64,000 nt of DNA from contig CAWAGQ010000013.1 in assembly GCA_963781585.1 (NCBI GenBank), positions 96,001 through 160,000 of the forward strand, given 5' to 3'. Origin of the DNA: an uncultured Gemmatimonadaceae bacterium (GTDB lineage: Bacteria; Gemmatimonadota; Gemmatimonadetes; Gemmatimonadales; Gemmatimonadaceae). A program made the position numbers and the translations under genes. A model generated the notes under the pieces. That model saw nothing but the letters and a program-made list of their open reading frames with translations. It ran no database searches and was not told the DNA's origin. Shown here piece after piece: positions 14,533 to 35,680 of the stretch; position 1 is the stretch's first letter; each line of letters opens with the position of its first letter.

Positions 14533-14677
14533 GGTGGTCGGTCAGAAGGAGACAGTGATAGTTATGCGGGAGGCGGCGCAACCAGACGTGGCGCGGGCCA
14601 TCGGGATGCGGAAGCGGGGACGGCCGGGGCCATCGCCGTGGTCCGTTGACCCTTCACCCTAATGCGCGGGGGTTGCG

Positions 14678-15916: not shown

Positions 15917-15987
15917 CGGCGTGGTCGACTTGCGGCGGGGCGAGCCACCGAGTGGCGGAGCCCCGCGGGTTGCCGGTCGCCAAGAAG

Positions 15988-17538: not shown

Positions 17539-18587
17539 GCCAGTTGCTCGCGACGATCCGCGAGGTGAGCCAGCTGCGCCCACGAGCGTGCGGGGTCAGC
17601 GAGCGCGAGCGCGGTCGGTACCAGCATTGCGGTTGCGCCGAGCGCGGCTGCCCACCAGAGTCCGTGGCGCAGGCAGATCGCGACTGGCATGATCCCGTTG
17701 ACCGCGTAGAGGAGAACAAAGAACCGCGAGCGTCCCAGTCGTTCGGCCACCAGGGAGGGTGGTGTCACCCAAAGCATCACACGCGCGATGATGGTTCCAG
17801 TGACATACCAGCCGAGCCAGTTGCTGACCGGCATGCCGTAGAACGCGTTGCCCGAGAAGAAGGTCGACACCCAACCGGGCAGCCCGGCGTCGTGAAACAT
17901 TTGACCGGCTCCCCAGCTCCAGTGCGCCATTCGCACCATGGCGGGATCCATGGAGATGTCCCAGGCCACGAGCACGGCACCAGCGAGCGCGGCCCACCGC
18001 CACCTCGCCGCCGCGTTGTCGGCGGCGCGAACGCGCCGGCTGACGATGGTGAGACAACCGACGAGCATGTAGAACCATGACACCGGTATGGGGAACGGGA
18101 CCAGGCCCAGAACACGGTAGCCCAGCAGCGACGAGTAGTGGTATTCCCCGAACGGGAGTGCGGTGCTCGTTCCGATGAGTTCAGCGCTCAGTGAGATGCC
18201 GGCACCCGCGACGAACAGTGTCAGGGCGCGTCGCGCGCCGAGTGCTCGTGCGAGAAAGGCGAGCGCTGCCAATGCGCCGAGAAGCACGTAGAGCGGCCCC
18301 GAGAATCGCCATCCGAGACGCATGACGGTCGCTGCCGGCTCCTGCAGCACCCAGGCGCCCGGGGGTCGACTGAGGATGGTCACCATCGCGGTCGTCGAGA
18401 ACGCGATGAGCGTCACGTGAGCGGTGAAGAGACCGATGGCGAGGCCGGGGCGTCGTGCGCGCACCTCGGGGCCGGTGAAGGGGAGGGGTGACGAGGGAGA
18501 CGTTGCCGAGCTCGGGGCTCGCGCAGCGTCGGCGAAGCCCGGCGGTGCGGAGGTCTCCGTGCCATGTGGGTTGCCGGCTCGTGTCAA
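17535..18587 (-). CDS. cruF: carotenoid 1,2-hydratase-like membrane protein (CruF family)
   Basis: ELIG...PFGEYHYS, VPFPIPVSWF, WDISMDPAM, YGMPVSNWLGW; lies between crtB and crtI. Start uncertain (TTG 18587). Confidence 0.78.
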   Translation of the reverse strand: MTRAGNPHGTETSAPPGFADAARAPSSATSPSSPLPFTGPEVRARRPGLAIGLFTAHVTLIAFSTTAMVTILSRPPGAWVLQEPAATVMRLGWRFSGPLYVLLGALAALAFLARALGARRALTLFVAGAGISLSAELIGTSTALPFGEYHYSSLLGYRVLGLVPFPIPVSWFYMLVGCLTIVSRRVRAADNAAARWRWAALAGAVLVAWDISMDPAMVRMAHWSWGAGQMFHDAGLPGWVSTFFSGNAFYGMPVSNWLGWYVTGTIIARVMLWVTPPSLVAERLGRSRFFVLLYAVNGIMPVAICLRHGLWWAAALGATAMLVPTALALADPARSWAQLAHLADRREQLA

Positions 18588-18594
18588 CCGGTCC

Positions 18595-19527
18595 TCACAC
18601 GGTTGCGTGCGACGTGCGGCGTGCAGCGTCGGGGGCCATTGACACCGGCGGGAGTTCGGGCAGCCGCCGGGTCCAGGCGCGTACCAGGACGCGCAGCAGT
18701 TCCGTGCGGCGGACAACCGCGCGCCGGGAGAACGAGTCGAATTCGATTGCCTCAATCGCCGCGAGGATCCCGGCATAGCCGGAAGCGCAGGCGAGGGCAC
18801 AGCGCTGCGCGTCAGATTGAAGCAGCGCAATTCCAGGTGTGGCGGCTCGATAGAGTTCACGGGCCCGCGCGATCTGGAATCGCATCAGGGCGCGCCACGA
18901 TGCGACCGCGCGGACGGCGGTGCCGTCGAGGACCTGTTCGCGCGACAGGGAGAAACGCCGCAGGTCCTCATCGGGAAGATAGACGCGGCCGCGCGCGGCA
19001 TCCTCCCCGACGTCGCGGAGTATGTTGGTCAACTGCATCGCGAGTCCGAGCGTGCGCGCGTGTCCGAGGGCGCGCTCGCGTTCGTCGGCGCCCCCGGTCG
19101 TGCCGAAGACGGCGGTGCACATCTCGCCCACGCTGCTGGCGACAGCGCGGCAGTAGCGCTCGAGATCGTTCCAGGTCGCGTAATGCGCGTACGAAAGGTC
19201 CCGCTCGACGCCGGCGAGAAGTGCTTCGAACGGCGCCCGCGGAATCTCGAAGCGGGCCATGGCGCGCAGGAGCTCGCGAAGCACCTCGTCCCGCGGCGTC
19301 TGGTGCATCGCCGCATGGAACGCATTCCGGTACTCCCGCAGTCGCGAGAGCGCGGTGGCCGCACCCTGCGGATCCGTCGCCAGGTCGACGATATCGTCTG
19401 CGGTACGGCAGAATGCGTAGACGGCATACACGCCACGCCGTTTGTGGCGTGGAAGCAGCCGGCTCGCCAGCGCAAAGGTCCGTGCGTGGCGGAGCACCAT
19501 CCGCTTGCAGCTGGCGGCATCGTTCAC
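18595..19527 (-). CDS. crtB: phytoene synthase
   Basis: YAFCRTADDIVD, YCRAVASSVG, MQLTNILRDVGEDAARGRVYLP. Start is GTG 19527 or ATG 19500. Confidence 0.92.
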   Translation of the reverse strand: MNDAASCKRMVLRHARTFALASRLLPRHKRRGVYAVYAFCRTADDIVDLATDPQGAATALSRLREYRNAFHAAMHQTPRDEVLRELLRAMARFEIPRAPFEALLAGVERDLSYAHYATWNDLERYCRAVASSVGEMCTAVFGTTGGADERERALGHARTLGLAMQLTNILRDVGEDAARGRVYLPDEDLRRFSLSREQVLDGTAVRAVASWRALMRFQIARARELYRAATPGIALLQSDAQRCALACASGYAGILAAIEAIEFDSFSRRAVVRRTELLRVLVRAWTRRLPELPPVSMAPDAARRTSHATV

Positions 19528-19529
19528 GA

Positions 19530-19577
19530 TGCGGAAGGGGGGACTCGAACCCCCACGGTTGTCCCACGGGATCCTAA
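19530..19577 (-). pseudogene. 3' half of the split host tRNA-Leu(TAG); left attachment junction
   Basis: Minus strand TTAGGATCCCGTGGGACAACCGTGGGGGTTCGAGTCCCCCCTTCCGCA contains the anticodon 3' strand, variable arm, T-arm and acceptor strand CTTCCGC. The acceptor strand pairs with GCGGAAG at 35629-35623. Confidence 0.93.
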
Positions 19578-19596
19578 AAATTATTTCCCCTTCTAG

Positions 19597-19681
19597 TGCG
19601 GGCGGAGGGATTTGAACCCACAAGTCCTTTTGGGACAACGGCTCCTAAGGCCGTCGCGTATGCCAGTTCCGCCACGCCCGC
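19597..19681 (-). tRNA. tRNA-Leu(TAG), element-encoded, 85 nt
   Basis: GCGGGCGTGGCGGAACTGGCATACGCGACGGCCTTAGGAGCCGTTGTCCCAAAAGGACTTGTGGGTTCAAATCCCTCCGCCCGCA: 7-bp acceptor stem, ACGGC/GCCGT anticodon stem, long variable arm, T-stem with one U-U mismatch, no encoded CCA. Confidence 0.93.
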
Positions 19682-19740
19682 GCTTCGATTTTTCGCCTAG
19701 TGTCCCTCTTGGTGTCCCTCTCGTCTAGTGGCACCCTGGA

Positions 19741-20414: not shown

Positions 20415-21860
20415 ATGATCAAGAAACTCTCACCACCACCCACGGAATCGCCGCTCGGTCGTCGAGAGCGCGGGCACGGAAAACTCGTGTGCTGGCCGTA
20501 CCGCACGCCGGCTGACCGTCTCGCGGGCGTCGCCGTTCCATATGGATACGACGCGCGAGGCCGGGCGCTGTGGAAGTTCGTCCTCCGGCTCGACGGTAAG
20601 GCGGTCGTGATCCCAGCCCGTGACTGGCCGCACGCCAACAACGAGTCGCTGAAACGCCTCGGCAAGTGGGATGAGATCGTTGCCGCGAAGGCGGCGAGGA
20701 AAGAAGCGCGCAAGGCTCGGATCACCGGCATAGCCGCCAGTGAGGGATGGAGGTACGCCGACCTGACGCGCGAATGGCTAGCCCACAAGCATCAGCAGGG
20801 CAGGGCACGGCCCTCGACGCTCGCGGGGTACGCGGACGACCTCAAGCGTCACTTCGACCCGTTCTTCAACGTGAAGCTCGACAACCCGGCGCTCGCCGAA
20901 ATCACGCCGGTTGCCATTTCGGCTTTTCGTGCCGCAGTCACGGGGGCAAAGGGTGACCGGCGTCGCGAGAAATGGAACAAGCTGTTTTCACGAGGTTGGG
21001 AGATCTTTGAGTTCGCCCGCGCTCTCGGGAAGATCGACCGCAACCCGTGGATCGCGCCCGTTCATCGCTATCCCGAGCGAACCCGCGACGCGGAGCAGCA
21101 GACCACTGTAATTCCGGCGACGCAGTTGGATCTGATCCTCGACGAGGCCGAGAAGCTCGATGACCCTCGCGTTTCCGTCGCGGTGCTACTCGCTGGGTAC
21201 GGCGGCCTTCGGCTCGACGAGATGACGCACGTTCGCGTCGGCGACCTCACCGTCACCGACACGCTGGTGGATCTGAAGGTAACCAGTGGCTTTCCCTGCT
21301 CGTGCTCATCGTGCGCGAAGGACGGCAACAAGCACCTGACGAAAAATGGGACGACGCGCTACGTGCCGTTCTTGCCTGAGCACGGACAACGGTTCGCTGC
21401 ACATGTCGAACGGCTTCGCACCGCCGGCGTGAGCGGTCCCGAGACGTGGCTGCTCGCCTGCCTCGAACGGCAGCGTCGGTCGAAAGCGAAGCCGGGCAAC
21501 ATGGTCAGGCGCGATACCATCGCGGGAGCGGTCGAGGGACTCGTCGCACGGACGCTCGGTCTCGCGCCGGTCGTCTCGAAAAAGAAGGCCAAAAACAAGT
21601 CCGGACAGATCCGCGATGTGACGCGGACGCGCTACAAGCTGCCGAAGGGAGAGCGCATCCACGTACTACGCCACGCGGCGCGGACTCGGCTCTCGCATCT
21701 CGGCCTGCCGAGCGAGACCATAGACCTCATCATGGGTCACCGGCTCACGGGGATGCGCGGCACGTACACGCATCAGGACCGCGCTGCCGCGTATCGGCTC
21801 CTCTGCGAGAAAGCAGGCAGGAATCTTCCGAGCCCGGTGCAACTCGTCCGGAGCGCCTAA
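20415..21860 (+). CDS. int: tyrosine recombinase/integrase
   Basis: GGAGG RBS. Catalytic motifs GLRLDE (R), HVLRH (HxxR), IMGH and TY, plus a SAM-like RPSTLAGY...L..I region. Confidence 0.93.
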   Translation: MIKKLSPPPTESPLGRRERGHGKLVCWPYRTPADRLAGVAVPYGYDARGRALWKFVLRLDGKAVVIPARDWPHANNESLKRLGKWDEIVAAKAARKEARKARITGIAASEGWRYADLTREWLAHKHQQGRARPSTLAGYADDLKRHFDPFFNVKLDNPALAEITPVAISAFRAAVTGAKGDRRREKWNKLFSRGWEIFEFARALGKIDRNPWIAPVHRYPERTRDAEQQTTVIPATQLDLILDEAEKLDDPRVSVAVLLAGYGGLRLDEMTHVRVGDLTVTDTLVDLKVTSGFPCSCSSCAKDGNKHLTKNGTTRYVPFLPEHGQRFAAHVERLRTAGVSGPETWLLACLERQRRSKAKPGNMVRRDTIAGAVEGLVARTLGLAPVVSKKKAKNKSGQIRDVTRTRYKLPKGERIHVLRHAARTRLSHLGLPSETIDLIMGHRLTGMRGTYTHQDRAAAYRLLCEKAGRNLPSPVQLVRSA

Positions 21861-21941
21861 CGCCGACTCACCATCAGGTGAATACAAGGGCGTATATTTG
21901 ACTACATCGTAAATGGCTGGGCGCATCGCCAGCCCACCACG

Positions 21942-21982
21942 GAGCCGGGTGACGGGGGAGCCCTCGTTCCCCGGCTCTCTTT
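21942..21982 (+). terminator. GC-rich hairpin followed by TCTTT
   Basis: GAGCCGGG (21942-49) pairs with CCCGGCTC (21970-77), with inner pairing; lies downstream of int. Confidence 0.55.
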
Positions 21983-21998
21983 ATCACCGGAGTAATGC

Positions 21999-22175
21999 AT
22001 GAAAGCCAAGCGAAGGAAGACCCGCCCGTCAGCCACCCGCGCCGAAAGCATCCGGCGATCCTGGCAAGTTCAGTCGATTCGCCAGCGTCGGTCTGAGGGC
22101 GTACGGCGGTACCACGAGCGCGCCCGCGCCGCCCTCGAAGCGCAGGAACGCGAAGGTGGCATGGCCACGACGTGA
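21999..22175 (+). CDS. 58-aa arginine-rich protein
   Basis: Below the ORF-track cutoff; GGAG upstream. Sequence MKAKRRKTRPSATRAESIRRSWQVQSIRQRRSEGVRRYHERARAALEAQEREGGMATT. Confidence 0.45.
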   Translation: MKAKRRKTRPSATRAESIRRSWQVQSIRQRRSEGVRRYHERARAALEAQEREGGMATT

Positions 22176-22284
22176 GAGGTTGCTACCGCGCACCACGGTA
22201 GTCTGGTTGGGCACGACGAAAGAGAAGCGCGCCTCGGAGCCGAATCCGAAGGCGCGCACCTGAACCCGACAACTCAAATCAACA

Positions 22285-24183
22285 ATGGAATCGCAGGATA
22301 ATATCTCATCGCCGCTCGTCCAGCGGTTTTGCGACCTGTTTCAAGCTGCGGCGGTATCCGCGACCGCGACCGCTGCCTTCGCTCTCGTCGCGCACGCGGC
22401 GACACCCGTGGAAGCGGCGCACGCATATGCGTCCGCCGGGTTTCCCGTCATCGCGTGGCGAGCTGGCGCGGACGGTGCAAAGGTGCCGCTCATCGACGCG
22501 TGGCCGAGTGCTGCGACGAACGATCCCGGCGCGGCGGTGCGCTGGTGGGACCGCTGGCCCGACGCGGGCGTGGGGGTGGTCCTCGACGCCGGCTGGTGCG
22601 TCGTTGACATCGACGGCGACGATGGCCTACGGACGCTCGTCGAACGCGTTCAGCTTGGCGGACTGCCACTCGGCCCTCGCGTTAAGACTGGACGCGGGTA
22701 CCATCTATGGTATCGCGTTCCGCCCGCGCTCCAGTCAGGGCTTCGGAACGCGGCGAATGGCAAGGTTGAGTTCTACGTCGAGGCCCGCAAGCGATTCTTC
22801 GCCGCGCCGCCGTCGATACACCCGACCGGCGTCGCATACGCGTGGGAACACGCCGAGCTGCCGGTACCTGATCTTCCCGCCGACGCGTTCCGGTGGCTCA
22901 TCGACGTTGACGGCGACCACAGCGCGTCCAAGCCGAACGTGGCCGCGCCGCTTGTCGGTCGCCACGACGACCTATTTCGGGCGCTGTGCTCCATGCGGGC
23001 GCGCGGGTTCGACGAGGACGCAATCGAAGCCGCAGCCCAAAAGCAAAACGAAGCGTTCGCGGATGGTCCGCTCCCGGCCACGGAACTCGCGCGCATCGTG
23101 ACGATGGTCAACCGTTATCCGCTCGGGACGGCGCTGCCGAATCGTCCGACGACGCACGGCCTCACGCTCCGCCGCTACGACGAGATCGAGGAACGCCCGC
23201 TGTCGTGGGGGTGGCGCGGCGTGCTGCCGCGTCGGACGCTCTCGACCGTCGTGGGGGAACCCGGTCTCGGCAAGAGCCTCGTGACTTGCGACCTCGCGGC
23301 GCGATTTACGCGGGGCGAGGCGATGCCGGGCGGGAGCGCGAACGGGTTCGGCAGGCCGGTCAACGTCCTTATGATCGCCATCGAGGACGACCCCGAGGAC
23401 ACGATCAAGCCCCGGCTCGACGCTGCGGGCGCGGACATGATGCGCGTCTTCGACGTTCGCATGAAGGTCGAGACGAGCGACGACATCGGCGCGCTGCCGA
23501 CGTTCCCGGACGACGTGCCGCGCCTGTTCGAGCTAGTCCGTGAGCACGACATCAAGGTCATCATCGTCGACCCGATCACCGCCTGTCTCTCCGACAAGGT
23601 GAACGCCTGGAAGGACGCGGACGTAAGGCGGGCGCTCGCGCCGTTGATCACGCTGGCCCGCGAAGTGGATGCGGTGGCCCTCGGCGTTATGCACGTGAAC
23701 AAGAACGAGACGCAAAGCGCGATCAACCGTGTCGCCAACTCGAAGGCCTTTACGGCAGTCCCGCGCGCCGTGTGGTGGCTCGGCCGCGACCCCGAAGACG
23801 AGGCACATCAAGTGCTTGTTTCGGTCAAGTTCAATGTCGGGCCGAAAGATAAGAGCTACGGCTTCTGCATCACGGGCTTTGACGACAAGGCCCCGCGGGT
23901 GGCGTGGGACGCCGCGCCGGGAACCTTCACGGCGAAGGACCTCCAGCGGCCCCCGCTCGACGAACGGCGAGACGGGAGGTACGAGGCCGCCCTGCTCCTC
24001 TTGCAGCACCTCGGCACGGGGCTCGTCGTCGAAAGCCGCGAGATCAAGGAAGCGGCGAAGGGCAGAGGAGTCGGTGAGAAAACGCTCGAACGGGTCGCGA
24101 AGGAGTTTGGGGTCGTGATCACGCGGACCTCGGAAGTGCCGTCGCGCACCACGTGGCGGTGGCCGTCGCGACTGACCTACTAG
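22285..24183 (+). CDS. bifunctional primase-polymerase with PriCT-like and AAA (RepA/RecA-like) helicase domains
   Basis: PrimPol motifs WWDRWPDA, VVDID, TGRGYHLWY, APPSIHPTG..Y.W; Walker A GEPGLGKS; IIVDPI; VMHVNK. Confidence 0.9.
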   Translation: MESQDNISSPLVQRFCDLFQAAAVSATATAAFALVAHAATPVEAAHAYASAGFPVIAWRAGADGAKVPLIDAWPSAATNDPGAAVRWWDRWPDAGVGVVLDAGWCVVDIDGDDGLRTLVERVQLGGLPLGPRVKTGRGYHLWYRVPPALQSGLRNAANGKVEFYVEARKRFFAAPPSIHPTGVAYAWEHAELPVPDLPADAFRWLIDVDGDHSASKPNVAAPLVGRHDDLFRALCSMRARGFDEDAIEAAAQKQNEAFADGPLPATELARIVTMVNRYPLGTALPNRPTTHGLTLRRYDEIEERPLSWGWRGVLPRRTLSTVVGEPGLGKSLVTCDLAARFTRGEAMPGGSANGFGRPVNVLMIAIEDDPEDTIKPRLDAAGADMMRVFDVRMKVETSDDIGALPTFPDDVPRLFELVREHDIKVIIVDPITACLSDKVNAWKDADVRRALAPLITLAREVDAVALGVMHVNKNETQSAINRVANSKAFTAVPRAVWWLGRDPEDEAHQVLVSVKFNVGPKDKSYGFCITGFDDKAPRVAWDAAPGTFTAKDLQRPPLDERRDGRYEAALLLLQHLGTGLVVESREIKEAAKGRGVGEKTLERVAKEFGVVITRTSEVPSRTTWRWPSRLTY

Positions 24184-24189
24184 CACGCG

Positions 24190-24560
24190 GTGTCGCGTGT
24201 AACCAATGATACAAATCCACGGACCGAAGGTTATAAAAAGTAGGAGTGTCTCAACCAGGAGGAAGAATCGCGTAACTCGTTGGCACCTAACGCCGCTTCC
24301 AGTCGCGACACTTCGCGTGAAAAGGGCAGTCGCGACACGCGTCATTCACGGTGGGGCGGAGCCTCCGCTTCCAGTCGCGACACGGCGGGTCGAATACAGG
24401 GAGGCCTGGCCTACAGCCTCGCTGAATGCCCCGGAAAATGCCTGCCGCGACCACGGCGGGACACCAGCGCGGGACACCACCGCCCGGCCGATTGTAACAA
24501 GCTCACATAAGTGCTGTCGTGGCAAAGCTTTATGCACAAAGACTATCATATCAGGTACGC
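24190..24560. repeat. iteron-like repeats with AT-rich flanks; candidate replication origin
   Basis: CAGTCGCGACAC at 24300, 24327 and 24372 (19-bp identity between copies 1 and 3); GCGGGACACCA at 24456 and 24469; AT-rich tracts near 24200-24245 and 24490-24560. Confidence 0.7.
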
Positions 24561-24709
24561 TAGTTCGTCTTCGCGACAAGCCCCTAGAACACGCTCAGAC
24601 CGCCTCGCGTGCCGCCGACCTATTTCTCCCTGTCCTCACGCACGGATTGCCCTTACCGTGGCATCTGGTGCCACCACCAACCGGTTCGCTGGACCTAACG
24701 AGTTCCTCA

Positions 24710-25312
24710 ATGAAGAACCCAAAGGAAGTGAAAGCGCCGCCCTTCCCAGACCTGCTCGCTGCGCTCGACCAGTACGATCCGCGGCTATCTGCGGAGGTGC
24801 GCGCCCTCCTCGCAGAGCTAAGAAGGGTCATCGCGGAGACCGGAGCGGCAACGGGAGGAGAAGGGCTGTCCGAAACCGCAGTCACAACGATCAAAGACAT
24901 CGCGACCGCCCACGTCGGCTCCGCGATGTACAACCAGCTCTCGTTGCAGTACTCGGCGGGTCTCCCGCTGAATAAGGGCGGCGAGAAGCGGGGCGTGATT
25001 CTGAGAGCGATGGAGAAGGCAAACCCTTGGTTCAGCGCGGCACGGTTCAAGGGGATGGATGGTCGCTTGCTTAAGAAGCCAAGCGGTCAGGCTAATCTGC
25101 GGGCGCGCGGCCGTGCGGCAGCCAAGGCGCGCGAGCTTCCGCGCGTGGACATTGACGAGCTGACTGAGCGTGAGGGCGACGCCATTTACGCGGAACTAAA
25201 GGCGGAGGACCAAGCGCGGCTCGCCGCCGGGAAGCGACCGCGGAAGTCCGTCGAAATCCAAAGGCAAGCGGAGGTGCGCGCCGCCCGTCGCCTAAAGGAG
25301 CGCGGCCAGTGA
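24710..25312 (+). CDS. hypothetical protein
   Basis: 200 aa from ATG 24710, helical and basic. The upstream ORF extension runs through the repeats and is probably non-coding. Confidence 0.6.
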   Translation: MKNPKEVKAPPFPDLLAALDQYDPRLSAEVRALLAELRRVIAETGAATGGEGLSETAVTTIKDIATAHVGSAMYNQLSLQYSAGLPLNKGGEKRGVILRAMEKANPWFSAARFKGMDGRLLKKPSGQANLRARGRAAAKARELPRVDIDELTEREGDAIYAELKAEDQARLAAGKRPRKSVEIQRQAEVRAARRLKERGQ

Positions 25313-25465
25313 CAGCGCTGTATCGGACTCGTTAGGGCCATCACGGTACCTTGAAAAACGTATCGAGGCCTCACGCCTCGACGCGCTACGGACGACGGTC
25401 GGCCAGCGGAACTGAAAATCTCCGCCGCTGGTCGGCCGAAGCCCCGGACCTCAAGGAATACCAAG

Positions 25466-26068
25466 ATGGCAACAACCACCAAGCCAGAAACGCTCGACCA
25501 GAGGCGCGCTCGCCTACAGGGCGAGTGCAATCACCTCACGTGTGACGCGCGGGATGCGCTCGAGGAGAAGCTGATTGCGGCAGATACAGCGGAGAAGGCG
25601 GCCGCTACGGCCGACGACGGACCCGCATGGCAAGCCGCTCGACGAGCCAAGGCCGACCTGATTCAGGAGCGTGAGGAACTCGTCGCGAGCATCGAGGCGA
25701 AGCAGCTCGCGCTCAAAGAGTGTGAGTGGCAGATCGCCAAGCGAGACCGGGACGCCGGAATCCGCGAGGTGCAGGCGCACGCCAAGACTGCGGCCGACGT
25801 CGCGCCGGAGATCGTCGAAGCTGTCGAGACCCTCGCCGACGCCCTGCAGCGCTTCGCAGGCCAGTGCGCCGGGGTCTATCGCGCTGGCGCGGCGGTGGAC
25901 CACGACAACGAGCGCGGCCTTCGCGAGCTGACGTCGAAGGAACGCGTGTGGCGCGACGTGGAATATCACCTGCGCGCGGCGCTCGGACTTTCCACCGGCG
26001 CGTTCATTCACGGCACGGCGCTCGATCAGGCAAGCGAGCTAACAACGTACGCCGAGACGCTCCGATGA
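25466..26068 (+). CDS. coiled-coil hypothetical protein
   Basis: AAGGA RBS; Ala/Glu-rich helical sequence; first gene of a translationally coupled run. Confidence 0.75.
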   Translation: MATTTKPETLDQRRARLQGECNHLTCDARDALEEKLIAADTAEKAAATADDGPAWQAARRAKADLIQEREELVASIEAKQLALKECEWQIAKRDRDAGIREVQAHAKTAADVAPEIVEAVETLADALQRFAGQCAGVYRAGAAVDHDNERGLRELTSKERVWRDVEYHLRAALGLSTGAFIHGTALDQASELTTYAETLR

Positions 26069-26301
26069 CGCCCGACCGCCGGGCGGAGCTTCGCACCGTC
26101 GCGCGTGCCTATGCCTTCGACGTCGCCTTCGGTGGCGCGCCGCTCGTCGGGGCGATGGCGCGCACCTGGGGCCACGCCGAATCACGCGAGGAATCCCGTC
26201 GCGTCCTCGCCGACTTCAATACTGCCTTCCGCCACTTCGCCCGTCGCGCCGGTCGCGCGGCGATCCGCTCCACACTTCGTGAGGTCCGCCGTGAGCGATA
26301 A
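26065..26301 (+). CDS. hypothetical protein
   Basis: ATGA overlap with the upstream stop; begins MTPDRRAELR. Confidence 0.6.
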   Translation: MTPDRRAELRTVARAYAFDVAFGGAPLVGAMARTWGHAESREESRRVLADFNTAFRHFARRAGRAAIRSTLREVRRER

Positions 26302-26647
26302 CACGTTCGTTCTACCGGCGAAAGCCGCACATGCGTTCCGACCGGGCGAGATGATTCCGGAGGACGGCTTCACCCGCTTCGTGCCCTACTTCCCTCGTCT
26401 GACCGGCGAGTCCGACGCCGCCTACGCGGCTCGGCTAGAAGCTGTCGGGTTAGCCGTAGTCATTACCTCCGAGGATGCCCGCGACATCGCTACGTACCGA
26501 GGACTCGTAACCGAGGCCGTAACGCGGAAGCTGCCTATCGCGATGCTGACCTCTCCGATTTCCGACGACCCGGGCGACGTGGACCTCGCGACTAGAGAAG
26601 CGGCGAAGGCGGCCGCCCTCGAAGCTGCGCACAGAGCCAAACCCTGA
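26291..26647 (+). CDS. hypothetical protein
   Basis: GAGG then GTG 26291, overlapping the previous gene. Confidence 0.6.
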   Translation: MSDNTFVLPAKAAHAFRPGEMIPEDGFTRFVPYFPRLTGESDAAYAARLEAVGLAVVITSEDARDIATYRGLVTEAVTRKLPIAMLTSPISDDPGDVDLATREAAKAAALEAAHRAKP

Positions 26648-26661
26648 ACCGATACACTCCC

Positions 26662-26841
26662 ATGGCAAACAATTCGAAGCTTGACCCGTCCCCCACCTAT
26701 AGCCCGTCGCATCACGACATCGATGAGTGGCACCGCGCTCGTCAGGCTCCCGGCAACGCGCCCGCGAACTCGCCCGCCGCGCCGGGAAACGCGCCGCGTG
26801 AGAACGTCGAACGTCCCGAGAAGTCGAAGGACGGCCGATGA
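26662..26841 (+). CDS. 59-aa Pro/Asn-rich hypothetical protein
   Basis: MANNSKLDPSPTY...; its stop overlaps the next ATG (ATGA). Confidence 0.45.
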   Translation: MANNSKLDPSPTYSPSHHDIDEWHRARQAPGNAPANSPAAPGNAPRENVERPEKSKDGR

Positions 26842-27206
26842 CCGCGACGGTCGGGCTGACGGTCGGCCTTACCGACGAAGACGAGCGCCTGATCGAGCGG
26901 CTGATCGACGCCGCGCTCGTCAGGCGCTTCGGATCGAGTAACGGCGCTCCCTCCGAGTCTGACCGGCTCGCTTCGTGGCGCGAGCGGCTTTGGACGTGCG
27001 CGCCGGATACGCGCCTGTTTGCCGACGAAGTCGCGGCGGCTCTCGGCGTGTCGAAGCGGACCGTCTACCGCTGGGTAGACGTGAAGCACCTTCCCTGCCG
27101 ACGCCGCGACGACGGGCTCGTGTTCCTCGCGGGTGACGTCCGAAGGTGGGCCGACGAACAGGAAACGGTGGTCAACTCGGCCGCGCGGCTTCGGAAGGTC
27201 GGGTGA
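26838..27206 (+). CDS. excisionase-like helix-turn-helix protein
   Basis: DEVAAALGVSKRTVYRWV...LPC...F...DVRRW matches the Xis/HTH_17 pattern. Confidence 0.8.
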   Translation: MTATVGLTVGLTDEDERLIERLIDAALVRRFGSSNGAPSESDRLASWRERLWTCAPDTRLFADEVAAALGVSKRTVYRWVDVKHLPCRRRDDGLVFLAGDVRRWADEQETVVNSAARLRKVG

Positions 27207-27210
27207 CGCC

Positions 27211-27474
27211 GTGACCTTCCGCGCGGCAAAGCGCCACGCGTCCCGCGAGGGACTTCGAATCCCCCGGCCTCCGAAGACGCTCGACGACGCCGTTAGGCTC
27301 GCGTCGTGGGTGTCGATCCAGGTCGCGCGCGGGAATATCAGCCATCACGACGCCCGCGCCATCACGGACGCGCTCAAGGAATTTCGCGAGCTGCTCGGCG
27401 TTCGCGACGCGAGGGTCGAGGCCGAGTCCCTGCGTCGCCAGATCGCTGAGCTAAAGGCGCGAGCCGGTGAATAG
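27211..27474 (+). CDS. small helical protein, candidate terminase small subunit
   Basis: Directly upstream of and overlapping terL, with a C-terminal coiled coil. The call is positional only. Confidence 0.4.
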   Translation: MTFRAAKRHASREGLRIPRPPKTLDDAVRLASWVSIQVARGNISHHDARAITDALKEFRELLGVRDARVEAESLRRQIAELKARAGE

Positions 27475-28993
27475 GCGAGAGCTAGAGCGACTTCGCCGCG
27501 AACTCGGCGAGCTGGAAGAGCGGCTCTACGGCACCGCGCCGTGGCCCGACCTCTCCCGGTACGCCGGGCGCGCCCGCGCCTTCGCGGAAGACGTTTGCCA
27601 CGCGGTGCTGCTCTCCTGGCAGGGCGAGGCGTTTGACGCGCTCGACGCGAACCGGCTCCTTGCCGTCGCGTCGTGCAACGGCGCGGGCAAGACCGCGTGG
27701 GCGCCGCTCGCGCTCCTGTACGTGGCGGCGGTGCTCGGTGCGAAGGCCGTCTATCTGACCGCCAACGAGCGGACGGCGCGCACGACGATGGTGCGCGAGC
27801 TAAAGCGGTGGGTCCGCGCCGCGAAGCTGCCGTGCTCGGTCTACAACCACGGCGTCGAAACGCCTAACGGCGGCGTGATCCTCGTCCTGTCGCCCGCCGA
27901 GATGGAAGCGGCCGCGGGCCAGCACGACCCCGAGATGGTGGTGATCGTGGACGAGGCCTCGGCGCTCGAAGACGACATCTTCGAGGCGCTGATGGGCAAC
28001 GCCGTGTCGGAGCGCAACCGGCTGGTTCTGCTAGGCAACCCGCTCCGCGCCTCCGGACCGTTCGCGACTGCGCTCCGCGCCGCACAGGGCTGGTGGAAGC
28101 GCTTCGTGACCGCCGCCGAGGTGATGGCCGACGCGAACTATGCGAACATCGCGGGCCTCATCAGCAAGCCGGGCGTGGACGCGCTCCGTCAAACGTTCGG
28201 TGAGGAGTCGATGGCGTTCGCGAGCCGCGTATACGCGCGGCTTCCGGTCGCCGACGCGGACGCGCTCTATCCGGAGGCGCTGTTAGAAGCGGCCGTCGAG
28301 CGCTGGCGAGCCGGCACGCTTCGGAGGAAGCACGCGAACGCGCGTCTCAAGGCGGGGCTCGACCTGGCCGCGTCCGAGGACGGCGACGCGTCGGCGCTGG
28401 CGGTGGCCTTCGGCGGCGCGCACGTCGAGGCCATCCACACCATGCGGAGCCGCGACACGATGAAGGTCGCGGGCTGGGCGGTCGCCACACTCGGCGCGTA
28501 CAACGCGCGGCGTCGCCCTAGCTTCGCGATGGCCGAAGCCGTCCGGGACCTCGGCCTAACGAGCCCCGGCGATCCCCTCATCCAGCTTCGCGACGTGAGC
28601 ATCTATGGCGACGAGATCGCGTGGGGAAAGGGCTGCATCGACCGGCTCAAGGAGGCGGGCTTTGCGGCTTACGGCATCAATGTTTCACGACGACCGGCCG
28701 AGGCCGACAAGGCGGCGATCTACGCGAACGAGCGGGCGCGCATCGCCTACGCGTTCCGCGAAAGGCTGGTGCAGGGGACCGTGGCGATCCCACCAGACGA
28801 CGAGCTGCTGGAAGAACTACGCGCCTATAAGGCCTTCGCGAACAGCGCCGGGAAGCAGCAGTGCGTCAGCAAGGGCGAGCTTCGGCAGGTGCTCGGCCGA
28901 AGCCCCGACAAGATGGACGCGGTGCTGCTGGCGACGTGCGCGGACGCGTCGCCGACGTTCGACGCCGACGAGAGTGGCTTGATCGCGTTCTAG
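27467..28993 (+). CDS. terL: terminase large subunit
   Basis: Walker A ASCNGAGKT, Walker B VVIVDEAS, LLGNP coupling motif, nuclease motifs GLDLA...GDAS and RSPDKMDA. Confidence 0.88.
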   Translation: MNRRELERLRRELGELEERLYGTAPWPDLSRYAGRARAFAEDVCHAVLLSWQGEAFDALDANRLLAVASCNGAGKTAWAPLALLYVAAVLGAKAVYLTANERTARTTMVRELKRWVRAAKLPCSVYNHGVETPNGGVILVLSPAEMEAAAGQHDPEMVVIVDEASALEDDIFEALMGNAVSERNRLVLLGNPLRASGPFATALRAAQGWWKRFVTAAEVMADANYANIAGLISKPGVDALRQTFGEESMAFASRVYARLPVADADALYPEALLEAAVERWRAGTLRRKHANARLKAGLDLAASEDGDASALAVAFGGAHVEAIHTMRSRDTMKVAGWAVATLGAYNARRRPSFAMAEAVRDLGLTSPGDPLIQLRDVSIYGDEIAWGKGCIDRLKEAGFAAYGINVSRRPAEADKAAIYANERARIAYAFRERLVQGTVAIPPDDELLEELRAYKAFANSAGKQQCVSKGELRQVLGRSPDKMDAVLLATCADASPTFDADESGLIAF

Positions 28994-29524: not shown

Positions 29525-30472
29525 TCAACAGTCGCGTTCCGCGTTTGGTGTCTGCGCGTCGGAGTCGGGCGCGCGGATGGGCTCGGGCTCGAACCACGCC
29601 GCCCTCGTTTCATTCTGGCAGACCACTATCTCGTCGTCGGCGTGGACGAGCGTGCGTTGATTGAGGATGTCGACAACCATTGGCGTCGTCTTCTGAAAGC
29701 CGCTAAGACCGGCGCGGTTGTAGACGAGGGTCTGACGCGGAGAGATTGGAAGCGTGACCTCCACGGTCGGATACATCAGACCTGGCGCCCGATGCAGGAA
29801 TGGACGCTTGTACGCCTCGGGGTCGAACACGACGCAGGGCGCGTCCGATGCGATGAATCCAAGGCGATCATCCGTGGAGAGAATCGCGAGATCCATTCCC
29901 ACGAGTAGCGACGCCATTGTCTCGATCGCCACAGCCATGCTGTTTTGAAGCGGCTCGCTCGCAAGTCGTCGTACGTCCGCATGACTCATGGTCTTAGCGC
30001 GATCCGATGGCGGCATCATCAGGCGAGCTATCTGCTCGCGCTCCTCGGGCGATCGCCTCATCATGTCGTCGTGAACTCGATCCAACGTTTCGAGAAGGCG
30101 TCCCCACTCCTTCCTCTGATGGTCGCGCTGTCGACGCGACCGCGAGTGCATCGCCGCAACGAAGACCGCCAGCATGAACTGGTCGAGCGGCTCAAGCTCG
30201 ACGCGCGCCTCAAACTTCTCGCGTCGCAGCGTCGAGAAGCGATCCTCCAATTCGCTGAGCCCACGTTCAAGCCGCAGGTCCCGAGCGCCTGACCGGCCGT
30301 GAATCGTGTACATGTCGGTCTCCGCGAAGATATTGTGCGGCGCCTTCCGACGGCCGGCACCGCCATTCCACGGGAACACCCACACGTACGGCTCCTGGCC
30401 TTCGGGCGTCGTGGGGTCGCACCATGCCGAGAGGTACGAACGGGGGACCCAGTGTTGTTTCTTGTGCTTCAT
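29525..30472 (-). CDS. DUF4238 family protein
   Basis: QHWVPRSYLSAW N-terminal signature, LERGLSELE, FIASDAP, LPISPRQ. Confidence 0.85.
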   Translation of the reverse strand: MKHKKQHWVPRSYLSAWCDPTTPEGQEPYVWVFPWNGGAGRRKAPHNIFAETDMYTIHGRSGARDLRLERGLSELEDRFSTLRREKFEARVELEPLDQFMLAVFVAAMHSRSRRQRDHQRKEWGRLLETLDRVHDDMMRRSPEEREQIARLMMPPSDRAKTMSHADVRRLASEPLQNSMAVAIETMASLLVGMDLAILSTDDRLGFIASDAPCVVFDPEAYKRPFLHRAPGLMYPTVEVTLPISPRQTLVYNRAGLSGFQKTTPMVVDILNQRTLVHADDEIVVCQNETRAAWFEPEPIRAPDSDAQTPNAERDC

Positions 30473-30734
30473 GGAGCGAACCGAAATGGCCACTCGCGAC
30501 GTGCGACCGACGCGTCGCCTACCGTCGACTGATCGAGCGGCCGATAAGCCTTCTGACTGGCCCGATAAGCTACGGGACTAACCTGCCAGAGAACGCGGCG
30601 CTGATTACCTGTGAGATTGCGGCGTTCACCGCCTCGCGAGTTCCGCTCTTGAGTGCGGCACGTATGCGCTGTCCAAGCGGAGTCTGATCCTTCAGCGCAT
30701 CCGGCACGGAATTGAGAACGGTTAACCCCTTTAG

Positions 30735-32084
30735 CAGGGTGCTGAAAAAGGGTGGAAAACTTGCTGTTGCAGAACGGGAGAGCGATGCCTAACGTGGCGC
30801 GACCCCAATGGAGAGTCCCCGGTATGCGCGGCGAGAGCCCCCAGCAGACGATTCTGTTCAGCTATCGCTCGGTCGAGGACCGGATCCCGGTCGACCACCC
30901 CTTGCGCGTGATCCGCCAGCTCGTGGAACCCGTGCTGCGCGAGCTGTCCCCCCAATTTGACGTGCTGTACGCCAAGATCGGGCGGCCGTCGATTCCGCCG
31001 GAGCACTTGCTGCGGGCGCTCCTCCTCCAGGTGCTGTACACGCTCCGGAGCGAACGGCGCCTCATGGAGGAACTCGACTACAATCTCCTCTATCGCTGGT
31101 TCGTGGGACTGAATCCCGACGAGCCCGTGTGGGTGCCGACCGTGTTCACGAAGAACCGGGAGCGGCTCCTGGAGGGGGACATCGCGCACGCGTTCTTCGC
31201 GGCGGTCCAGCGGCAGGCCGAGGTGCGGCAGTTGCTCTCGCACGAGCACTTCACGGTGGATGGCACGCTCCTCGAAGCTTGGGCGAGCCAGAAGAGCTTT
31301 CGCCCGATCACCGAGGGGGGCGACGGACCCCAGGGGCCCACCCCACCGGCGGAGGCGGATGCCGCGAGTCGGCCGAAGAATCCGACGGTGAATTTCCGGG
31401 GGGAGAAGCGGTCGAATGCGACGCATCGGTCGAGGACGGATCCCGACGCGCGGCTGGCCCGGAAGAGCCGAAACACCGCCGCGATTCTCGGCTACCTGGC
31501 GAGTGTGATCATCGATAATCGCCACGGCTTGGTGGTGGCGACCGATGTGCGCGCGCCGGGCGGGCATGCGGAGGAGGAGGCCGGGCTCGAGATGCTGACC
31601 ACGCTGGAAAGCCACCGGCCGCACCGGACCCTCGGGGCCGACAAGGGCTACGATACCGAATCGTTCGTCACCGGGGCGCGGGACGCGGGGGTGACGCCCC
31701 ATGTCAGTCAGAACATTCACCCCCGCCGGCTTCGCAGCGCCATTGACGCGCGGACGACCCGCCACTCGGGCTACGAGATCAGTCAGCGCAAACGGAAACT
31801 GGTGGAGCAAGGCTTTGGCTGGGACAAAACCGTGGGCTTGCTGCGCAAACTCCGGCATCGCGGTCGCGAGAAGGTCGGCTGGATCTTCACGTTCACCAAT
31901 GCCACCTACAATCTGGTGCGGATCCGCACCCTGATCCGGGCCGGCGTATGCCCCTAACGTCGACCAGCGCGCGGAATCGCCGCCGCGATCGCGCAAAGGG
32001 ACGCTCCCTGGAACTGCCGACGGCCGCATCGCACGCGCAGCCACAACAGAAATCGTCACTTCCCTGCCGTTTTTCATCATCCTG
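30735..32084 (+). mobile_element. IS5-family insertion sequence, 1350 bp
   Basis: Terminal inverted repeats CAGGGTGCTGAAAAA and CAGGATGATGAAAAA; TTAG target duplication at 30731-34 and 32085-88. Confidence 0.93.
30824..31957 (+). CDS. IS5-family DDE transposase
   Basis: DHPLR, GRPSIPPE, VDGTL, LGADKGYD, RKLVEQGFGW. Confidence 0.93.
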   Translation: MRGESPQQTILFSYRSVEDRIPVDHPLRVIRQLVEPVLRELSPQFDVLYAKIGRPSIPPEHLLRALLLQVLYTLRSERRLMEELDYNLLYRWFVGLNPDEPVWVPTVFTKNRERLLEGDIAHAFFAAVQRQAEVRQLLSHEHFTVDGTLLEAWASQKSFRPITEGGDGPQGPTPPAEADAASRPKNPTVNFRGEKRSNATHRSRTDPDARLARKSRNTAAILGYLASVIIDNRHGLVVATDVRAPGGHAEEEAGLEMLTTLESHRPHRTLGADKGYDTESFVTGARDAGVTPHVSQNIHPRRLRSAIDARTTRHSGYEISQRKRKLVEQGFGWDKTVGLLRKLRHRGREKVGWIFTFTNATYNLVRIRTLIRAGVCP

Positions 32085-32355
32085 TTAGGCTGAGCGTAAC
32101 GCGGTACATGAGGTGGCCGTCATCGACCACATGCCCTCGAATGATTCCCTCTGCAAGAAGGAAATCCAGCGTCGAAGAAACCAACTCTGGCGTCAAGTCT
32201 GTCGTATCGTGGGCGAGCGCGGTTACATCGAGAAACATTTCGCGTGGAGCTTGCTCATAAAGCGTCGCGAGGACCAACGCGACAGCGTGGTTAAACGGGT
32301 CAGAGTATGTCATGGACTCGTCAGGCAAATTTGGTCGTCGGAGGTGCAGTTCCAC

Positions 32356-32565
32356 TCACAGCCTGGGAGACGCACCGTAAATCGTAAGAATCTTGATCGT
32401 CTGGTTCTGAAGCGGCTTCTCGCGGCGCCTAACCCTCGGTTGAGAAAGGAAATGACGAACCGACAAGAGGACCTCTTCGCGGCTCAGCGTTCGATATGCC
32501 ATTACCTGATACGTCATATTATTCGCGTCGTCGCGCAGGGTGTTGCAAATGTTAGGCATTTCCAC
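32356..32565 (-). CDS. small hypothetical protein
   Basis: 69 aa, co-oriented with its neighbours. Confidence 0.6.
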   Translation of the reverse strand: MEMPNICNTLRDDANNMTYQVMAYRTLSREEVLLSVRHFLSQPRVRRREKPLQNQTIKILTIYGASPRL

Positions 32566-32583
32566 TTTTGGCTCCCGGCGAGC

Positions 32584-32790
32584 CTATTTCTTCCGGTTGT
32601 ACGGCTTTTGATTCGTCGGGCTGAGGGAGATGTCCTCCGCGCTGGCTCGCGTATACACCGCGGCCGCCGTACGACCGAGCTTCAACGCGATCACTCGGGT
32701 CGGCGTGTTGCCGCCGGCCAGCTCACGCAGCTGCTGATCGTCGCGGGCCGTCCAATCCTTGCCGGTGTTCCTGATGTATTTCGGCGTCAT
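32584..32790 (-). CDS. small Myb/homeodomain-like HTH protein
   Basis: GKDWT..DD..LREL...IALKLGRT..AV; GGAG RBS. Confidence 0.7.
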   Translation of the reverse strand: MTPKYIRNTGKDWTARDDQQLRELAGGNTPTRVIALKLGRTAAAVYTRASAEDISLSPTNQKPYNRKK

Positions 32791-33165: not shown

Positions 33166-33402
33166 ATGGCGAAGCTGAACGAACTGAGTGTGTCCGATCT
33201 CCGCAGCCAGCTTCCGAGTGTTCTGCACCGAGCGCTCGCGTTCGGTGAGTCGTTTCTGATTCTGAAACATGGTCAACCTTTTGCCGTTCTTTCACCACTG
33301 ACTGACAAGGAGGAGATCGAGCGCGTCCGAGCGAAGCTCAGCAGTGAGGGTGCCGACCGCGAACCGGTAGATGACGTGCTGGACGCGGAGTCGATCACGT
33401 GA
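33166..33402 (+). CDS. Phd/YefM-family antitoxin
   Basis: LSVSDLRSQLPSVL...GESFLILKHGQPFAVLSP pattern, acidic tail, GGAGG RBS. Confidence 0.8.
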   Translation: MAKLNELSVSDLRSQLPSVLHRALAFGESFLILKHGQPFAVLSPLTDKEEIERVRAKLSSEGADREPVDDVLDAESIT

Positions 33403-33446
33403 TTTCACGCCGGCGACGAGTGGTTCGCCGGAGGGGGTAAGCAGGA

Positions 33447-33689
33447 ATGGCAGTCGCGTTCTATTTCTTACCTTCGGCTGCGGAGCGGATGATGCGGTTG
33501 CCGCCCGACCTCTTGGTTCAAGCGGAGCAGATGCTCCAGGAGATCCAAGGACATGTCGGGGGTCACATCGGCGTCGAAGGCATGGTCGCGTACCGTCGAC
33601 CGACGCCACACGGCCAGATCCGAATCGTCCTCGCAGTCGTCCGGAACGAGATCATTGTCGCCGACGTAAACGTGGAGGTGTCGGGCTGA
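33447..33689 (+). CDS. divergent RelE/ParE-like protein
   Basis: 80 aa after the antitoxin; F.PSA..M..LP...YR...G..RIV...IIV layout. Confidence 0.5.
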   Translation: MAVAFYFLPSAAERMMRLPPDLLVQAEQMLQEIQGHVGGHIGVEGMVAYRRPTPHGQIRIVLAVVRNEIIVADVNVEVSG

Positions 33690-34019: not shown

Positions 34020-34484
34020 CTACGTGAGGGCGCGCGGCTCGCCGCTGTTGCCCTTGAGCTCAGCGTTGCGCATCTGGTAGCAGAGAATAATCGTGGCGGC
34101 GATGCCAAGAGCGCACGCGCCGACGAGGACCCATGCTGGGTCGCTGTGGCGGCCGGAAATCAGAACTGCGGTGACTAGGACGGCATTTACAATCGCATGT
34201 GCAACTGTAAGAACGAGCGCAACTGCGAAGTGCTGTCTTGGCGCGACCGTCGCGCCAACGTATACGAATGCCAGAGGCCCGACGATGCTGTTGATGAGCT
34301 GAGAATATGCCTTTTCAAAGAATTCAGGCAAACCGGTAAGCGAGTTACCAATGGCGACGAGAATCTGAATAGCTATGTATGCGGCCGCCGCAGCGGGGAG
34401 CACGAGGGCCCAGCGTGCCCAAGCGGGGATGGAGGAGAGGGTCACGTCTCGAGTTCTTCTTACCCTGATGGCAGCGTCACGCAT
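34020..34484 (-). CDS. hypothetical membrane protein (about 4 TM)
   Basis: Four hydrophobic segments. Confidence 0.65.
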   Translation of the reverse strand: MRDAAIRVRRTRDVTLSSIPAWARWALVLPAAAAAYIAIQILVAIGNSLTGLPEFFEKAYSQLINSIVGPLAFVYVGATVAPRQHFAVALVLTVAHAIVNAVLVTAVLISGRHSDPAWVLVGACALGIAATIILCYQMRNAELKGNSGEPRALT

Positions 34485-34485
34485 G

Positions 34486-34953
34486 CTAGACGCTTCCCAC
34501 GGTTGGAACGGCGAACCTTCCGTGAAGCTTGAACGTTGCTTCGACCGCGCGAGCTGCCACAACGAGCACCGCGATGGCCAGACCAACGTTAGTCCCAGGC
34601 GCCGACGTGATACCGACGTTGTTGAGAAGAGTAACCGCGCCGCTGCCAATGGCGGCCAACAGGAGGATCACGGCGGCGATCCGCGAATGCCACTTGCGGA
34701 GGATCGCACCCAGAACGAGGTACGCGAGAGCATCAAGTAACAAGTCGGTTGACGTCGCCCGCGGAATGAAGAGCCCTAACGCTGCTTCGATTGCTGCAAG
34801 GAAGAAGAATGCCGAAGACGAGTCTTTGACCACTTTGAGCGCGTCGTCCCTGTTCGCAATCGCTGAGAACAAGCCGTTTCTCTTCGGTGCAACCGCCATA
34901 GGCAAGCTCCGGAAGGCGTTTAGCTGCCTAACTGGGTTTGGAACCCTTTCCAT
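34486..34953 (-). CDS. hypothetical membrane protein (about 4 TM)
   Basis: GAGGA RBS; four hydrophobic segments. Confidence 0.7.
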   Translation of the reverse strand: MERVPNPVRQLNAFRSLPMAVAPKRNGLFSAIANRDDALKVVKDSSSAFFFLAAIEAALGLFIPRATSTDLLLDALAYLVLGAILRKWHSRIAAVILLLAAIGSGAVTLLNNVGITSAPGTNVGLAIAVLVVAARAVEATFKLHGRFAVPTVGSV

Positions 34954-34980
34954 GTGTCCGTCCTCGCCTCGTTGACGACG

Positions 34981-35421
34981 TCATGTCGGGGGGAGGAAGA
35001 CGAAGAGCAAGACGGCGCAGATCGGCAGCACGAAGAAACCAACCCTCCCCATGATGTCGAACACACCCGTGTTATCGAGGCCTCCGAACCGAACAAGAGG
35101 GACCAAGACAGCCCACTGCATTGCCAACGACAGCGGGAATGCTATGGCCAGCAGTTTGACGGCTTCCAGCCATCCATTTCGATAGGCGAAATAGAGAAGG
35201 AAAGCCCAGCCAAAGACTCGCGCGATGAGAAGGACCGACCCAAACACCAGCTGCGGGCGGGTCGACGCGGGACCGCCACTCATGTACCCCTGGTGGAGCT
35301 TCAACATGTAGTACTCGTTCATGCGGAAGAGCGCATAGACGAGAATGAGTGAAACTGGCACGCCGAGGACCATGGCCGTGCGAATGTGCCGACTTTGTCC
35401 GATGCCGGTAAGGGACGACAA
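34981..35421 (-). CDS. hypothetical membrane protein (about 4 TM)
   Basis: Hydrophobic segments; GAGG upstream of a TTG start. Confidence 0.6.
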   Translation of the reverse strand: MSSLTGIGQSRHIRTAMVLGVPVSLILVYALFRMNEYYMLKLHQGYMSGGPASTRPQLVFGSVLLIARVFGWAFLLYFAYRNGWLEAVKLLAIAFPLSLAMQWAVLVPLVRFGGLDNTGVFDIMGRVGFFVLPICAVLLFVFLPPT

Positions 35422-35590: not shown

Positions 35591-35629
35591 TCCTAAGTCC
35601 CGCGCGTCTACCAGTTCCGCCACTTCCGC
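35591..35629 (-). pseudogene. 5' half of the split host tRNA-Leu(TAG); right attachment junction
   Basis: Minus strand GCGGAAGTGGCGGAACTGGTAGACGCGCGGGACTTAGGA followed by non-tRNA sequence. CGGGA pairs with TCCCG of the fragment at 19530-77. Confidence 0.93.
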
Positions 35630-35680
35630 GTCCTGGAGAAGAAGGCACAGCGTTGACCAAGGTGTGCTCACCGCCCCTGG

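Follow-up and report, generated by a model that had tools for sequence, protein, structure and literature searches.

We describe an integrated element of 16,019 bp in a 64,000-nucleotide stretch of DNA (the window; position 1 is its first letter) from an uncultured Gemmatimonadaceae bacterium, positions 96,001 to 160,000 of the forward strand of contig CAWAGQ010000013.1 in GenBank assembly GCA_963781585.1. The element encodes an intact large terminase (TerL) and a probable small terminase (TerS) beside an integrase and a primase-helicase. None of its open reading frames (ORFs) scanned against Pfam and PHROGs matched a capsid, portal or tail protein, which agrees with an earlier sequence-only reading of the window. 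The element is a real and apparently undescribed variant of the phage-satellite kind. We are moderately confident that it is a satellite akin to the phage-inducible chromosomal islands (PICIs), which would package itself by the headful mode into helper procapsids with its own motor; the helper, the packaging and the role of TerS are deduced from the genes.

The element was delimited at both ends, as had been claimed before. Its span is the distance between two 6-bp TCCTAA attachment (att) cores (19572-19577 and 35591-35596). The core sits in the anticodon loop of the host tRNA-Leu(TAG), and the insertion cuts the host gene there, leaving its 3' half with the left core at 19530..19577 and its 5' half with the right core at 35591..35629, both on the minus strand. 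When the 16,019 bp between the cores were removed by script, an 81-nt tRNA-Leu(TAG) was restored and the excised piece retained a separate 86-nt tRNA. An empty site was found in a genome of the same genus (locus L312 of genome G401), where the two flanks are collinear (84-87% identity) and meet at the core around an intact tRNA. An intact tRNA-Leu(TAG) also stands beside the same aminotransferase gene at L315 and L317 (3 of the 13 loci in the empty-site scan, L312 included). Without the 1,350-bp insertion sequence (IS) and its 4-bp duplication the element measures 14,665 bp, against an earlier estimate of about 14.7 kb. The integrase, PrimPol-helicase, origin-like repeats, small genes, Xis-like helix-turn-helix (HTH) gene, small helical gene and intact terL were seen as one co-oriented run, just as the sequence-only reading had described them.

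TerL (508 aa; 27467..28993, plus strand) was recognised by phrog_2 (5e-17) and by its catalytic motifs, namely Walker A CNGAGKT (K75), Walker B VIVDE (D162-E163), the coupling motif GNP and all five nuclease aspartates (D299/D307/D382/D481/D484). The catalytic motifs are retained across about 30% identity among relatives. The nearest solved structure is 4IFE ('Gene 2 protein', E 9e-19), which we take to be Sf6 TerL. Named phage TerL relatives are 24-28% identical, with the TerL of phage B83 at 24.5%, and the accessible text on B83 reports that this phage was shown to package headfully (PMC6669507). Judged from sequence kinship at this low identity, the window TerL likely packages headfully. 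The closest TerL relatives that bear a name point to Gemmatimonadota as the host phylum. In one subclade of related TerLs, the Walker A GKT/S has become GKD and the Walker B Asp before E is replaced by T, S, G, A or M (L033, L035-L039, L041-L043, L047, L152, L159, L161, L165, L166, L172, L174, L182, L196, P0008 and P0009). Judged by the residues, Thr and Asp seem to have changed places in the ATPase, and the joint change of the Walker A T and the Walker B D in one subclade suggests selection on the ATPase.

The idea of a TerL without capsid genes held in that capsid and portal were not found, and it has to be amended in that TerL is not alone. It is paired with o27211 (27211..27474, plus strand), an 87-aa two-helix protein whose gene overlaps the terL start. 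The predicted fold is all-helical, with a predicted local distance difference test score (pLDDT) of 91. An iterated search over the collected loci gave 44 homologues, and the family stands upstream of 40 related TerLs; a family profile built without the window copy and its nearest relative still recovered o27211 at 4e-16. Many relatives carry an N-terminal Cys/His finger (DUF5763, a weak match in 5 of 35 members), and the window copy is without it. On position, size and two-helix form, o27211 is a probable TerS consisting of the oligomerisation core only.

Element ORFs longer than 230 aa with a clear coding score were all assigned otherwise, or correspond to the helical o25466 or the o24710 frame. 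An HK97 or portal fold among the ORFs between 24710 and 27474 had been considered earlier as a sign of hidden structural genes. None was seen in the two ORFs that were folded, o25466 and o27211, both all-helical; the other four (o24710, o26065, o26291 and o26662; 59-200 aa as called) were judged by length only, which falls short of what an HK97 capsid or portal protein needs. Behind the window terL, opposite-strand cargo follows directly, and no remnant of a portal or capsid gene was seen there.

The same architecture recurs in other genomes. A search of 401 genomes of the phylum matched related terL genes in 37, most strong matches being in portal-less settings. The comparison took in 37 stretches around these terL matches, along with loci of viral (80), genome (80) and metagenome (79) origin. 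In 19 of the 34 stretches examined for boundaries, terL is enclosed by direct repeats 38-63 bp long, which are tRNA ends in most cases (Leu, Lys, Val, His, Pro, Ala, Arg, Cys and Ser), and the elements so bounded are 4.8-18.5 kb in size and probably belong to Gemmatimonadota. No scanned ORF of these 19 elements matched a portal or major-capsid family; TerL is full length in 15 of them, an integrase was matched in 16, and a primase, helicase or Rep protein in 13. The integrase-PrimPol-HTH-terL synteny to which attention had been drawn was found again in L031, L040 and L045, which repeat the window gene order at 24-59% protein identity, two of the three at other sites. The shared order is integrase, primase, repeats, o25466-, o26065- and o26291-like genes, HTH, TerS-like gene, terL and cargo. 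A second layout among the relatives combines a helicase-only replicase with a gene of 1,000-1,200 aa. Tape-measure matches were obtained for this large gene in L048 (3e-10), L264 (1e-57) and, as a fragment, L036; the large genes of L034, L035, L037 and L039 are tape-measure-like by length and mutual similarity only. Neck1 was matched in L037 (5e-24) and L035. These tape-measure and neck matches in relatives tie the terminase family to virion assembly. The layout between att sites without capsid or portal is a recurrent one and does not represent a single deleted prophage.

A deleted prophage had been expected to show itself by close homologues that always carry portal and capsid genes after terL. 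Portals were found in 0 of 3 homologues with context in the window's own starred clade of the TerL tree and in 1 of 22 labelled loci in the wider starred clade. Among loci with a TerS-like gene, TerL and at least 3 kb downstream, a portal was present in 1 of 26, versus 97 of 123 other TerL loci; these rows are kin, the family was seeded from portal-less elements, and no statistic is claimed. Portals were scored by BLAST and PHROGs, and the count omits eight rows (duplicates and one duplicate pair). The test is able to detect portals, because those of L049, L054, L056 and L057, weak TerL matches in the same phylum that represent ordinary prophages, were recovered. The starred clade that holds the window TerL in the second tree comprises 38 rows, of which 21 are portal-less, one is portal-linked (L275) and 16 are without context. 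The trees omit six duplicate loci. For the second of them (121 rows, quick search, unrooted, Shimodaira-Hasegawa-like approximate likelihood ratio test only), L194 and 16 other long, distant or broken rows were dropped as well. In the first tree the portal-linked L194 joined the window clade on a long branch. Since a second portal-less group lies elsewhere in the tree, the portal-less layout probably arose more than once.

L275 is the one portal-bearing locus with a TerS-like gene and TerL, and has portal, head-morphogenesis and major head genes after TerL. Its TerS-like gene matches a profile built without L275 at 7e-11, and a 289-aa gene stands between this gene and terL. The locus is nested in the same starred TerL clade as the window, so the terminase type does occur with a head module. 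The part of this metagenome contig that was seen (L275:48-14913) also carries a primase, and L275 is a candidate helper or ancestral lineage.

Two further kinds of loci were observed. L058:3275-14851, one of the 19 bounded elements, is an 11.8-kb tRNA-Ala element with PrimPol, a repressor, a TerL of another clade and a 'virion structural protein' match, and with no portal match; it is possibly a third origin of the layout. At L159, L164, L165, L174 and L196 a TerS-like gene and terL, and at L032, L047, L184 and L195 terL, have cargo-like or host genes as neighbours, and no primase was recognisable in the retrieved flank; these loci are either remnants or parts of larger islands.

The other core genes of the window element are all on the plus strand. 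The tyrosine integrase (481 aa, 20415..21860; PF00589, phrog_1 3e-25) is 37% identical to the integrase of the sister element L031. A 58-aa basic protein follows (21999..22175), with a similar gene after the integrase of the sister L045 (E 2e-5, weak), and then a 632-aa PrimPol-PriCT_1-AAA_25 primase-helicase assigned by Pfam and PHROGs (22285..24183). Iteron-like direct and inverted repeats occupy 24165..24383, with four copies of GTCGCGAC (24165-24381) and two of a 16-mer. The origin-like repeats noticed earlier proved to be above chance, the genome rate of GTCGCGAC being 0.074/kb and a 10-mer count of 4 being reached in 0 of 500 first-order Markov resamplings. Repeat clusters of different sequence also follow the primase in L031, L040 and L045, and the cluster is a probable replication origin.

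Between the repeats and the terminase genes lie six small genes. For the 200-aa protein o24710 (24710..25312), homologue searches found no homologue and the atlas gave no usable match; its frame is open from 24206 (368 aa, no library match), with a 5' part of poor coding score that overlaps the repeats. The 200-aa o25466 (25466..26068) is predicted to be an all-helical hairpin (pLDDT 92) and is common to the sister elements, its kinship in L031 being based on alignment alone. As a guess, it may be a candidate capsid-interacting factor. Fold searches of o25466 gave generic helical matches only, with no TerS, Sid, Psu, HK97 or portal chain prominent. The atlas offered Psu as a lead (0.91, rank 27), and Psu and Sid were absent from the fold-search lists. 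An identity as Psu or Sid is not supported, as hhalign gave probabilities of 0.1% against P4 Psu and 0.4% against Sid and Pfam Psu was unmatched in 12 members. A 78-aa protein (o26065, 26065..26301) is common to L031, L040 and L045, and a 118-aa protein (o26291, 26291..26647) to these three and L169, whereas the 59-aa o26662 (26662..26841) has a weak coding score and no homologue was found by search. The 122-aa Xis/MerR-like HTH protein (26838..27206; HTH_17, phrog_66) adjoins the terminase genes. No divergent CI-like repressor was among the called genes of the element, and none had been apparent before. The promoter and terminator scan gave matches at chance level.

The host tRNA is rebuilt at neither junction. 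The element carries a complete 86-nt tRNA-Leu(TAG) that differs from the host gene (carried copy at 19596..19681, minus strand). This copy is the only tRNA called in the 64-kb window, the sole Rfam match there, and the only Leu(TAG) among the 63 tRNAs called in the genome (93.5% complete). A 42-nt stretch at 35589-35630 is 83% like the 5' half of the carried tRNA. The CTA codon is present in 1,003 of the 3,882 called genes of the genome and accounts for 21 of 228 Leu codons (9.2%) in the core (20415-28993) versus 0.9% in the host; no link of this enrichment to the carried tRNA is claimed, because the sister elements L031 and L045 also show 6-8% CTA. Two tandem GTGTCCC repeats (19697..19721, plus strand), with further copies at 20333 and 35477, are candidate arm-type integrase sites. 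L031, in genome G057, has its crossover in tRNA-Leu(TAG) at the identical base, with its orientation also the same; unlike the window element, it rebuilds the gene via a carried 41-bp 5' half. The window element may derive from an L031-like state by gaining the whole tRNA, and would thus be freed from matching the host 3' half. At L031 and L326 (G057:C15:18178-36212), two copies of the tRNA-Leu(TAG) 5' half are found upstream of the rebuilt gene, and 143 bp of flank accompany one of them; we read this as tandem insertions by a 5'-half-duplicating integrase. In the genome of the window, certain tRNA pairs are present twice, on contigs C2 and C6 and on contigs C5 and C8, in line with the 7% contamination figure.

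If the element is a satellite with its own motor, a helper would supply procapsids, portal, tails and lysis, and the element would bring the complete terminase. Upon helper infection, the Xis-like protein and the integrase would excise the element and restore the host tRNA, and the PrimPol-helicase would replicate it from the iteron cluster. The TerS-like protein would load TerL on a pac site, possibly with the help of the adjacent HTH protein at 26838, because o27211 is without the N-terminal finger of its relatives. TerL would then cut, dock on the helper portal and fill heads by headful. Heads filled in this way would hold concatemers, except where one of the small genes, for instance o25466, makes the head smaller. 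A cell that lost the island imprecisely would be left with no tRNA-Leu(UAG), and this would stabilise the island.

Several points weigh against this proposal. TerL-portal pairing is usually cognate. No helper prophage, portal, capsid, second TerL or head/tail cluster was found in the genome (93.5% complete), which makes it necessary to postulate a helper that is lytic or missing from the assembly. Single proteins scanned against metagenome and viral contigs gave no close relative (best viral match 31%) and hence no virion evidence. TerS library and fold searches of o27211 returned only generic helical, non-specific matches. Decay does occur, as TerL is broken or shortened in 4 of the 19 bounded elements and no integrase or primase was recognised near terL in L032, L047, L159, L164, L165, L174 and L184. 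In the capsid-forming PICIs (cf-PICIs), TerL and capsid are tightly linked according to the accessible text (bioRxiv 10.1101/2022.09.08.507074). Separately, a second phrog_2 match in the genome, on contig C4, was set aside because it lies within a host gene run and not in a prophage.

The best surviving alternative, which we hold to be unlikely, is that the terminase serves interference or defence by jamming or outcompeting a phage motor or by cutting phage DNA, the island moving rarely or via a helper terminase. This would suit the persistence at several loci of terL alone or with only a TerS-like gene, the restriction-modification genes among the cargo of relatives and the large subclade with non-canonical Walker motifs (GKD, T/S-E). 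However, a blocker would not need ATPase and nuclease both intact, and the window TerL is canonical in both; PADLOC gave two marginal matches, none meaningful, and terL lies within a replication-linked run, where PICIs keep their packaging genes.

Still less probable is a decayed prophage or cf-PICI-like element that has lost its head and tail genes and keeps TerL as a relic, as printed for the island NitKor-E1. It would require the same modules to be deleted, with exact att ends, in many distant elements at nine tRNA isotypes. L275, with this TerS-TerL type beside portal and head genes inside the same clade, speaks for such loss, as do the broken TerLs mentioned above, and the tape-measure and neck genes of some members could be leftovers; on the other side stand the 15 whole TerLs among 19, the gene order conserved at 24-59% identity and the cargo directly behind the window terL with no pseudogene seen between. 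Packaging of mainly flanking host DNA from the integrated state, similar to lateral transduction or gene transfer agents, with the host keeping terS-terL as the rest decays, would fit a probably headful TerL and the several genomes in which terS-terL stands with neither integrase nor primase close by, but is just as improbable, since most bounded members retain integrase and replicase, no host head/tail cluster was found in the genome, and flank transfer can be a by-product of a self-packaging satellite.

Returning to the satellite with its own motor, a wider claim falls somewhat short of an even chance in our estimate. It would be a widespread, old satellite class that swaps the motor, using the helper procapsid and portal with its own TerS-TerL and needing no match to the helper terminase or pac site. 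The class would have arisen at least twice in the phylum, some members would also fix the length of the tail by a tape measure of their own, and the present member would be locked in by the sole tRNA-Leu(UAG).

Cargo fills the element behind terL. It begins with a DUF4238 protein identified by Pfam (29525..30472, minus strand). The 1,350-bp IS (30735..32084, plus strand; DUF772 and DDE_Tnp_1), bounded by 13/15 terminal inverted repeats and a TTAG duplication, interrupts a small minus-strand cargo gene (30570-32313); a second copy on contig C11 is 99.5% identical and appears split into two ORFs. Three small genes follow (32077..32790, minus strand), of which 32584-32790 matches phrog_323 (transcription regulator). 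Then come a Phd/YefM-like antitoxin and an 80-aa gene, a possible toxin partner with no Pfam or PHROGs match (33166..33689, plus strand), and three small hydrophobic membrane-like proteins, likewise with no match in these libraries (34020..35373, minus strand). The left flank (9926-19638) presumably holds host lon, clpX, clpP and tig and carotenoid genes (crtI-like, carotene-hydratase-like and crtB-like), as named from their translations.

Published systems are compared here as the accessible parts of the cited sources present them. The element resembles classical PICIs (PMC10085698) in its integrase, primase-replicase and cargo after the packaging genes, as well as in its tRNA site, its size of about 15 kb and its lack of phage structural or lysis genes. 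Its MerR-like HTH gene, which adjoins the terminase, and its probable TerS, a candidate by position, may correspond to the PICI regulator (a homologue of alpA, merR or stl) and small terminase. It differs from them in encoding an intact TerL instead of relying on the helper TerL, and no AlpA/Stl-type divergent regulator or capsid-morphogenesis gene was recognised in it. The SatelliteFinder model lists TerL as specific to cf-PICIs (PMC10085698). These are likewise satellites with their own TerS and TerL (bioRxiv 10.1101/2022.09.08.507074), but their capsid, protease and portal genes, their head-tail connectors and their HNH gene were not found in the window element, and the window TerL looks headful (pac) and not of the HK97/cos type. 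Unlike P4-like elements, which use a Delta/Ogr activator and are packaged at cos by the helper terminase, the window element has no Ogr/Delta match and encodes its own TerL.

The closest published arrangement is NitKor-E1 of Ca. Nitrosopumilus koreensis (PMC6563490), an integrated element described as having a tyrosine integrase, TerS directly upstream of TerL and toxin-antitoxin cargo, but no further virion genes. NitKor-E1, compared by description, is a single archaeal case which its source calls a relic; the elements found here form a bacterial family that has a replicase, a probable origin and a conserved gene order. The sequence-only reading had held that the element fits no known satellite class and may be an undescribed family. 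By the model descriptions it fits no SatelliteFinder family, and the novelty is qualified by NitKor-E1, an archaeal TerS and TerL island already in print. The EPIPs of Mycolicibacterium (PMC12822802) are small satellites that carry TerS together with a tape-measure gene, as do some relatives of the window element; they have a serine integrase and no TerL listed in the available part of the source, while the window element has a tyrosine integrase and no tape-measure gene was found in it. The tRNA-dependent lysogeny of actinobacteriophages (PMC10865867) shares the short core, the host tRNA that is not rebuilt and the element-borne tRNA; here the carrier is a capsid-less island with a 6-bp core, and cells that bear it may need its tRNA for survival. 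The archaeal pSSVx and SRCE satellites (bioRxiv 10.1101/2025.02.15.638363) also encode a virus-derived ATPase without a capsid protein, but depend on spindle-shaped or other non-tailed viruses, and their ATPase is not a TerL.

So far as the accessible accounts go, TerS is the only terminase subunit described for PICIs, tycheposons and VEIMEs, and phiAH14b is without a terminase. No described satellite family with TerL and no capsid was found in the literature searched, most subscription papers being outside it; supplementary datasets (SatelliteFinder type C, VEIME) could hold such elements. Described satellites either redirect the helper TerL via TerS (PICIs, tycheposons and VEIMEs) or make a complete head of their own (cf-PICIs). 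A headless family with the entire motor would be the missing combination. It would imply that TerL can work on a non-cognate portal, and that terL-only islands, which satellite finders miss or which have been written off as prophage debris, may be active elements.

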